A stretch of 63,830 nt of DNA, filler included, from Rozella allomycis CSF55 (lineage: Eukaryota), in NCBI GenBank assembly GCA_000442015.1. It is 14 parts of 14 records of this genome, joined end to end, with 100 filler letters (N's around TTAATTAATTAA, not from the genome) between each part and the next. Parts side by side here need not be neighbours in the genome. Positions count along the whole stretch, not along the records: positions 59,604 to 61,233 come from KE560570.1; 13 more parts are not named here. The stretch is one strand, 5' to 3'. Made by a program: the position numbers and the translations under genes. A model generated the notes under the pieces. It worked only from the letters and a program-made list of their open reading frames with translations. It made no database searches and had not been told where the DNA came from. Positions 59,617 to 60,649 of this stretch are shown here, piece by piece; position 1 is the stretch's first letter; every line of letters begins with the position of its first letter.

Positions 59617-60649
59617 TTAACGAAAATGTAATCCTTTTTCATGAAATGTTACTAAAAGCTTCATATAGTCATGTATATCCATCTTGGCAGCTCTACTCTC
59701 TGCAAATCCTGCTTCTTCTAAAACTTGTTGAACCAATTCTTTAATATTAAACGCATCCATCAAACACTATTTCAATTCAACCAATTCAATTTACAATATC
59801 ATTCAACGCACAATACGTTTTATAATTCCTCTCAAGCATATCCAACACACTCTGAGTCTTAAAATTAGCAGCCAACGTCTTATTCTTTCTCATAAAACAA
59901 ATTCTAAGCATCCCATCCCACTCTTCAAAATCAACCGGCGGCGGCGGATTAATAGGCTCCAATCTAATCACCGACGACTCTACTTTGGGCGGCGGCCTAA
60001 AATTATTCTTCCCAACCTTCATCACATGCTCAACTTTCGCCAGCAACTGGCAATTCACACTCAGCCTACAATACAACGGATCACCAGGCTTCGCAACCAA
60101 CCGCAGCGCAAACTCTCTCTGAAACATCAACAATGCACACTTAAACAGCGGTCTATGGCACAGCAACTTGAACACCAGCGGACTGGAAATCTGTCATCCA
60201 CTCTATTCCATCTGCTTACCTGATACGGCGTGTTCGACACACAAACATCAAAATACGGAAGATCCATCTTTATCACATCACCAAGCATTATACTCAGCTT
60301 CTTCTGCTCAGCGGTCCCCTGCACACGCTTCGTAAGCTCAGCAGCCATCCGCGGATCCATTTCAATCGCTACCAGCTTCTTCGCCTTGTCAATCATCTTG
60401 ACTGTCAAATTGCCGGTTCCCGGACCCACCTCCAAAACTACATCCGTGGCCTTGATGTTCGCCTATTTTTTGACATTGCTGTTGTTACCTTTGACAGATA
60501 ATAAGAGTTGTTACCTTTTCGACGATGCCATTCACCACCAAAGGATTCTTCAGGATATGCTGGCCGAGATCCTTGTTGAAGATCGGGTTCGCGGTACGGC
60601 CCTGCTGCGCTGGATTCGTTTTTTGCTTTGGGCGAACCACTTTGGTCAT
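59617..60649 (-). CDS. DIM1: 18S rRNA dimethyladenosine transferase
   Basis: [51 protein letters not shown]. Confidence 0.96.

Follow-up and report, generated by a model that had tools for sequence, protein, structure and literature searches.

Zero-nucleotide exons are known as recursive splice sites, or ratchet points, from Drosophila and from long introns of vertebrates (PMC6616335 citing Burnette et al. 2005; bioRxiv 10.1101/006163). In the accessible parts of these sources, abutting U2 introns which are removed recursively form a recognised class of complex intervening sequences, described from long animal introns (PMC6616335; bioRxiv 10.1101/006163). Stwintrons are fungal intervening sequences that each consist of two U2 introns (PMC6616335, accessible text). 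In Lipomyces starkeyi, a complex intervening sequence whose donors abut is reported to be removed by either one or two reactions (PMC7138796, accessible text). Ultra-short introns are described for Paramecium and other ciliates, Microsporidia, Dicyemida and myxozoans in the accessible text of two further papers (PMC13644364, PMC5014332). In the open-access literature we found no report of back-to-back minimal introns or of recursive splicing in tiny-intron organisms, and no case of recursive splicing outside animals.

We analysed a window of 63,830 nucleotides (the whole stretch of DNA, filler included) from the parasitic fungus Rozella allomycis. Here the housekeeping gene DIM1, which encodes the 18S rRNA dimethyladenosine transferase (18S rRNA dimethylase), carries two directly abutting GT..AG units of 26 nt each (minus strand, 60514-60463). 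By comparison of genomic, metagenomic and protein sequences this element is confirmed as real, a minimal intron whose doubling is derived and which occupies an ancient intron position. Its reading as a case of recursive splicing is plausible.

The element resembles ratchet points in the abutment AG/GT (the slash marks the splice site) and in the chain of abutting U2-type introns. As with ratchet points, removal of the upstream unit would regenerate a 5' splice site, in DIM1 by means of an identical 12-nt junction. In contrast, ratchet points subdivide very long animal introns and their stepwise removal was shown by RNA data, whereas the DIM1 element is known from DNA alone. It does not divide an intron of kilobases but comprises 52 nt in total, belongs to a fungus and consists of minimal-intron units, for which either order of removal would be workable. 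With stwintrons it shares the fungal host and the composition of one intervening sequence from two U2 introns. However, the internal intron of a stwintron is nested in a splice element of the external one, i.e. it interrupts the external donor, branch point or acceptor, and this forces an inside-out order (PMC6616335, accessible text). The DIM1 units lie side by side, un-nested and complete with their own GT and AG, and no order is forced. The closest fungal analogue is the complex intervening sequence of Lipomyces starkeyi. For fungal complex introns, donor duplications of 4-7 nt are proposed in the accessible text of PMC7138796, compared with the 12-nt repeat of period 26 in DIM1.

With the ultra-short-intron lineages Rozella shares a sharp genome-wide length mode below 30 nt, taken for Rozella from the window, and weak signals beyond GTA...AG. 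It differs from them in that the list of lineages with introns <30 bp in a 2026 paper, as far as its text is accessible, gives ciliates, Microsporidia and Dicyemida and does not name Rozella (PMC13644364). Published data agree with tiny introns in Rozella. Two introns of ~30 nt were described for the S23 gene of Rozella (PMC6349667, accessible text). The lowest fungal median intron length, 29 bp, was reported for a genome set including R. allomycis, a value that may or may not be that of R. allomycis (PMC8042348).

In organisms with introns of ~25-30 nt the question arises whether the spliceosome needs a minimum length only or measures length. The DIM1 pair is a natural test of this tiny-intron recognition. 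Two complete minimal introns without an exon between them give the same mRNA by either route; therefore, one-unit intermediates and lariat sizes would distinguish the routes directly. If the recursive reading is true, DIM1 represents a new form of abutting-intron recursive splicing, in minimal introns. If one-step splicing is true, the element is merely an oddly built 52-nt intron, a curiosity. Furthermore, the pair would capture intron gain in the act: a repeated exon-intron junction gives rise to a new intron abutting the old one, and the ancestral single-intron state is retained in a relative.

The doubled intron and its host gene

The public protein P0003 ('rRNA adenine dimethylase [Rozella allomycis CSF55]', 307 aa) was found in the public protein search with 100% identity over exon 2. 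By tblastn it was placed on the window in four exons with 100% identity each, separated by intervening sequences of 52, 29 and 28 nt (Table 1). From this identity the DNA belongs to R. allomycis or to a strain almost the same. Exons 2 and 3 match Pfam RrnaAD, and the host gene is a full-length collinear match to the DIM1/KsgA family. Exon 2 was also matched to the Dim1 structures of yeast and human (E 8.6e-34 and 2.9e-30), and its protein is 75-80% identical to fungal Dim1. The host gene is DIM1, as named in the original prediction. The contig with DIM1 covers 59604-61233 of the window. Upstream of DIM1, at 60743-61006 (minus strand), a gene for a cysteine-rich protein was identified, which weakly resembles group XII secretory phospholipase A2 (Pfam PLA2G12, E 5.7e-08, under the curated cut-off).

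Table 1 Positions of the DIM1 exons, introns and repeats and of the introns used for comparison (counted along the window; for L055 along the metagenome contig)
Feature	Position	Strand	Evidence or remark
DIM1 exon 1 (M1-K45)	60515..60649	-	tblastn P0003 residues 1-45, 100%; aligned to yeast Dim1 up to residue 51
Unit 1 (5'), GTAACAACTCTTATTATCTGTCAAAG, GTAACAAC...CAAAG	60489..60514	-	acceptor score 6.05, donor score 3.37
Unit 2 (3'), GTAACAACAGCAATGTCAAAAAATAG, GTAACAAC...AATAG	60463..60488	-	acceptor score 5.73, donor score 3.37
12-nt repeat copy 1: exon-1 end AAAG and 5' splice site GTAACAAC of unit 1	60507..60518	-	exact 12-mer
12-nt repeat copy 2: unit-1 end AAAG and 5' splice site GTAACAAC of unit 2; central AG/GT, point of the zero-length exon	60481..60492	-	exact 12-mer
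DIM1 exon 2 (A46-Q126)	60220..60462	-	Pfam RrnaAD profile positions 26-112; P0003 100%
DIM1 intron, 29 nt	60191..60219	-	Pfam RrnaAD profile continues 112 to 110 over the junction
DIM1 exon 3 (I127-I258)	59795..60190	-	P0003 identity 100%
DIM1 intron, 28 nt	59767..59794	-	P0003 tblastn; list of ORF-joining candidates
DIM1 exon 4 (C259-R307)	59620..59766	-	P0003 identity 100%
Cullin intron, 31 nt	61601-61631		collinear in Pfam
Cullin intron, 28 nt	61879-61906		collinear in Pfam
UCH intron, 27 nt	49786-49812		collinear in Pfam
TPH intron, 24 or 30 nt	10743/10737-10766		collinear in Pfam
Protein kinase intron, 31 nt	41165-41195		collinear in Pfam
L055 intron, 28 nt	L055:186-213		metagenome contig
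L055 intron, 28 nt	L055:301-328		metagenome contig
L055 intron, 29 nt	L055:391-419		metagenome contig
L055 intron, 30 nt	L055:564-593		metagenome contig

The 52-nt element is flanked by ...GAAAAG/ upstream and /GCGAAC... downstream. Both units start with GTAACAAC and both are preceded by AAAG. At 60490-60487 (CAAAG/GTAACA) the 3' splice site of unit 1 adjoins the 5' splice site of unit 2, which leaves an exon of zero length. Joining exon 1 (...AAAG) to unit 2 restores, by sequence, the identical 12-mer AAAG/GTAACAAC, i.e. a 5' splice site. The arrangement exceeds chance: after shuffling of the 52 nt (200,000 times) a central AG/GT with halves of 24-28 nt was obtained in 0.6% and AG/GTA in 0.3% of the cases. 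Each unit has the form GTA...AG, a length within the 24-34 nt of the minimal-intron class, a high AT content and an effect on the frame, which it interrupts. The acceptors of both units are typical, with scores of 6.05 (unit 1) and 5.73 (unit 2) compared with a mean of 6.09 for the tiny introns of the training set. In contrast, their common donor is weak (3.37; training mean 6.93, sd 1.54, training minimum 3.31). No RNA structure shortening the 52 nt was detected by folding (z = -1.0; in 33 of 200 shuffles the fold is as good or better).

The end of exon 1, K45, aligns with residue 51 of yeast Dim1 (6rbd_y) and the first residue of exon 2 with residue 52. Therefore, exactly 52 nt must go. P0003 runs uninterrupted across the junction of exons 1 and 2, consistent with the absence of these 52 nt. 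Retention of either unit alone leads to a stop 16 codons after K45, and retention of both to a stop after 9 codons. Judged from the reading frame, production of Dim1 must require the loss of all 52 nt. Back-to-back GT-AG units of 26+26 nt starting with gtaacaac had been described in the original prediction, together with the claim that removal of only one of them shifts the frame and both have to be removed. The sequence at 60514-60463 (minus strand) reads exactly so, and the yeast Dim1 alignment, P0003 and the stop 16 codons after K45 bear out the claim on the frame.

Intron lengths and removal in one step or two

Candidate introns were defined as GT..AG stretches of 16-150 nt which join two open frames of at least 40 codons each and whose read-through soon meets a stop. 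Candidates with a GTA donor peak at 27 nt (15) and 28 nt (12). For 26 nt and for 29-33 nt, 3-6 candidates per length were obtained, and 0-7 per length elsewhere between 16 and 150 nt. The introns in the Rozella window form a sharp class of 27-28 nt, with a range of about 24-34 nt. Beyond GTA(A)...(A/T)AG these tiny introns carry weak splice signals. A length of 26 nt represents the short edge of the distribution, with three candidates in the window; tiny introns of this length are located e.g. at 53029-53054 and 16154-16179 (minus strand). Collinear Pfam profile coordinates confirm the 29-nt intron of DIM1 and, in four other genes, five junctions of tiny introns (24-31 nt). The tight intron size assumed at the outset was thus recovered in the window scan, and the mode of 27-28 nt makes 52 nt anomalous in this genome.

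Among the ORF pairs with at least 70 codons on both sides (n = 41), a tiny-intron solution exists for 18. Of the remaining 23 pairs, only the 52-nt element of DIM1 was read as a genuine simple junction with a well-scoring intron >36 nt; visual inspection assigned the other 22 to antisense frames, to alternative frames or to composites of an exon and two tiny introns. From a crude gene finder, in which all lengths of 18-300 nt were equally likely a priori, 49 introns were obtained: 31 of 26-31 nt, 7 of 34-47 nt and 11 of at least 56 nt. This result is a rough length histogram only; several of the long introns contradict Pfam, e.g. a 41-nt cullin intron and a 262-nt kinase intron.

Two longer introns are probable from the joining of ORFs. 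At 53562-53608 (minus strand) a 47-nt intron, free of internal AG and GT, connects a frame of 258 codons to one of 62, and a 50-nt intron (14536-14585, minus strand) follows the signal-peptide exon of an EF-hand gene. In the public protein search no protein was found for either gene. These two introns suggest that the spliceosome of Rozella may be able to take ~50 nt in one step.

The search of the window for tandem intron pairs with a central AGGT gave eight formal hits, and DIM1 alone is credible. The others were rejected, being located within open frames or representing further readings of the same site. Exons of 1-30 nt between two tiny introns were not detected in the window either. Hence, closely spaced splicing is without precedent there.

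We favour two sequential excisions over a one-step excision of 52 nt. According to this proposal, the ancient phase-0 position of DIM1 after ...EK would hold two complete minimal introns (26 + 26 nt) instead of one. An insertion or duplication of 26 nt would have repeated the 12-nt junction AAAG/GTAACAAC. Through the repeated junction an additional 3' splice site and an additional 5' splice site would have become neighbours, with a zero-length exon as the result. If unit 1 is removed first, exon 1 would be joined to unit 2 and the identical 12-nt 5' splice junction would be regenerated, a case of strictly recursive splicing. With unit 2 removed first, the acceptor of unit 1 would again precede a G. 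We infer the use of the internal splice sites and the order of their use.

For the sequential splicing of the two 26-nt units as separate minimal introns, we see an even chance. The wider reading is more tentative: that sequential removal over the zero-length exon is the shortest recursive splicing known and implies a splice-site ruler of ~27 nt, by which the doubled intron would be read as two. We would place it somewhat short of even.

Complete GT and AG signals in each unit, the typical acceptors and the renewal of the identical 12-nt donor junction on removal of unit 1 speak for two steps. The period of the repeat, 26, lies inside the narrow spliceable range, as would be expected if unit 1 had to be an intron itself; use of the distal donor for a 52-nt intron would not require it. 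In splicing by intron definition the nearest compatible sites are normally paired, and 26 + 26 is therefore favoured over 52. Against two steps, the shared donor GTAACAAC is weak (3.37) and 26 nt is at the low edge of the lengths. The missing precedent for closely spaced splicing in the window also counts against them. Furthermore, a U1 snRNP on the second donor would be expected to sit right on the first acceptor, which is a steric concern.

The strongest alternative is an ordinary 52-nt intron, in which the first GT and the last AG are paired in a single reaction. In this case a 26-nt insertion would have duplicated the 5' junction, and the internal AG/GT would be left over from it without being used. 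We regard this as a serious candidate, if not quite an evenly matched one. It gives the identical mRNA, and the public annotation needs just 52 nt gone. On the other hand, splicing would have to bypass the proximal sites, although the scores of this donor and acceptor equal, or are as good as, those of the outer pair. In favour of one step, the duplicated donor has a low score, both units lie at the lower end of the length range, and the likely simple introns of 47 and 50 nt in the window fit a one-step removal. For spliceosomes a minimum intron length is generally known but not a maximum, and this also agrees with a single 52-nt intron. However, DIM1 would be the only strong ORF pair of the 41 joined solely by a well-scoring intron >36 nt, compared with 18 pairs with a tiny-intron solution and 22 discounted by eye. 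Outside the 12-nt repeat no kinship of the units is detectable, so that there is no sign of selection on unit 1 as an intron; the length of the insertion, in contrast, is exactly in the spliceable range and equals that of the other unit.

Integrity of the gene and the element in independent DNA

The 52 nt are present without gaps in contigs of four DNA runs from three studies (X1, X2, X3 and X6). X1 and X2 represent one sample; the contigs of the four runs were assembled independently. In X2, X3 and X6 a diverged second haplotype was found, in which 4 of the 52 positions are changed (position 20 of unit 1; positions 7, 16 and 17 of unit 2), none of them at GT or AG and without any indel. Four differences are too few for revealing selection on the internal AG/GT. 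Over 60230-60968 the DNA runs carry two haplotypes or strains, which are a few per cent apart. For X6, 46 differences over ~900 nt were counted, some of which, with small indels among them, are clustered in the 5' flank of DIM1 (60701-60734).

A decaying or non-functional copy of DIM1, i.e. a gene broken by the 26-nt insertion, is very unlikely. An unspliced insertion of 26 nt is indeed a frameshift, but complete splice sites come with the insertion itself. Moreover, none of the four exons has an interrupted frame and each agrees with the annotated protein at 100%, the exon 2 protein keeps its 75-80% identity to fungal Dim1, and the structure is kept in both haplotypes.

Contigs are chained in the window by N44-TTAATTAATTAA-N44 linkers (e.g. 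59504-59603), and the single Ns at 633, 828, 8251 and 61008 are flanked by exact duplications of 12-29 nt, which are unmerged contig overlaps. Both the linkers and the single-N duplications are assembly artefacts, not biology. The Ns closest to the doubled intron are the single N at 61008 and the linker at 59504-59603. Although artefactual duplications of 14-29 nt around single-N joints occur in the window (e.g. 60979-61007, copied across the N at 61008), a spurious local duplication of this kind, from assembly or scaffolding, is hardly conceivable for DIM1, since no N lies at the element, the 26+26 structure is ungapped in independent contigs of four runs, three studies and two haplotypes, and P0003 needs the loss of 52 nt, not 26. 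The original prediction that no N is involved therefore stands. Reads not supporting the duplication had been named there as a refutation; the contigs of the four runs do carry the 52 nt.

Age of the position and origin of the doubling

Metagenome contigs were scanned with P0003 and 80 loci were kept. The spliced product of L055 (1509 nt, GC 35%) agrees with P0003 at 209 of 307 residues, and this locus probably belongs to an unsampled relative with tiny introns. Its first intron (28 nt) is located at the same codon boundary as the doubled element of DIM1, the only intron position common with Rozella. Two loci of more distant eukaryotes, L048 (56 nt) and L044 (52 nt, without internal AGGT), have a phase-0 intron at the same codon boundary. 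With an intron there in L055, L048 and L044, the position must be old. The single 28-nt unit in the tiny-intron relative L055 shows that the doubling is derived and specific to the sampled Rozella line. From the loci compared, the doubling is a derived state at an ancient intron position. Unit 2 is probably the ancestral intron of this position, on the basis of the single 28-nt intron in L055.

The exact direct repeat between the units is 12 nt long (AAAG/GTAACAAC, period 26). A common prefix of 8 nt, as in units 1 and 2, occurs in 4 of 861 tiny-intron pairs. Compared over the whole length, however, 47% of the 861 pairs score as high as the two units or higher. TGTCAAA, which is common to both units, is marginal (4.9% of control pairs). 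The 3' part of unit 1 was compared with the tail of exon 1; 63% of 5000 shuffles score as high or higher. A local duplication had been suggested from the common start of the units. This holds for the 12-nt junction, which is repeated, but the rest of the units are alike no more than random tiny introns.

In the Rogers model introns are gained by tandem duplication of an AGGT-containing segment. DIM1 is comparable in the direct repeat with AG/GT at both ends of the new intron (12 nt, period 26). As in the model, the new unit spans the first GT to the second AG, and its excision restores the original transcript exactly. In contrast to the model, the repeated AG/GT of DIM1 is an existing exon-intron junction and not exonic, so that old and new intron lie directly side by side. 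The repeat covers just 12 of the 26 nt; for the remaining 14 nt, similarity to the old intron and to the exon tail does not exceed chance. The new intron is not composed of the downstream head and the upstream tail of the original AG/GT, as the model would have it; the best ungapped model has 15 of 26 identities. A fresh duplication of the Rogers type with uniform decay was rejected, because unit 1 is dissimilar to the exon-1 tail and, outside the repeat, to unit 2.

There are two candidates for the origin. The insertion of 26 nt may have consisted of the 12-nt direct repeat and 14 nt of filler, in the style of end-joining repair. Double-strand-break repair leaving short direct repeats is a route of intron gain, and small donor duplications in end-joining repair were proposed as the origin of complex introns (PMC7138796, accessible text). 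Alternatively, an exact duplication of the 26-nt intron may have been followed by replacement of a block and loss of 5 nt in the A run, which happened to keep 26 nt. Such an exact duplication, if true, would indicate selection on unit length; the alignment behind it is not significant.

Exact repeats of at least 12 nt at a spacing of 13-60 nt were found 12 times in the window: four beside single-N joints, seven in coding tandem repeats (31.3-32.7 kb) and one in the DIM1 element. The coding region at 31328-32720 (plus strand), source of these seven, contains many in-frame short tandem repeats with periods of 15-42 nt. They are located within and just downstream of an ORF matching a PP1-binding motif (30745-32187). 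Pieces of a Ty3/gypsy-type retrotransposon with matches to gag, zinc knuckle and aspartyl protease were identified at 58379-59503 (plus strand), and a chromodomain ORF at 25004-25441.
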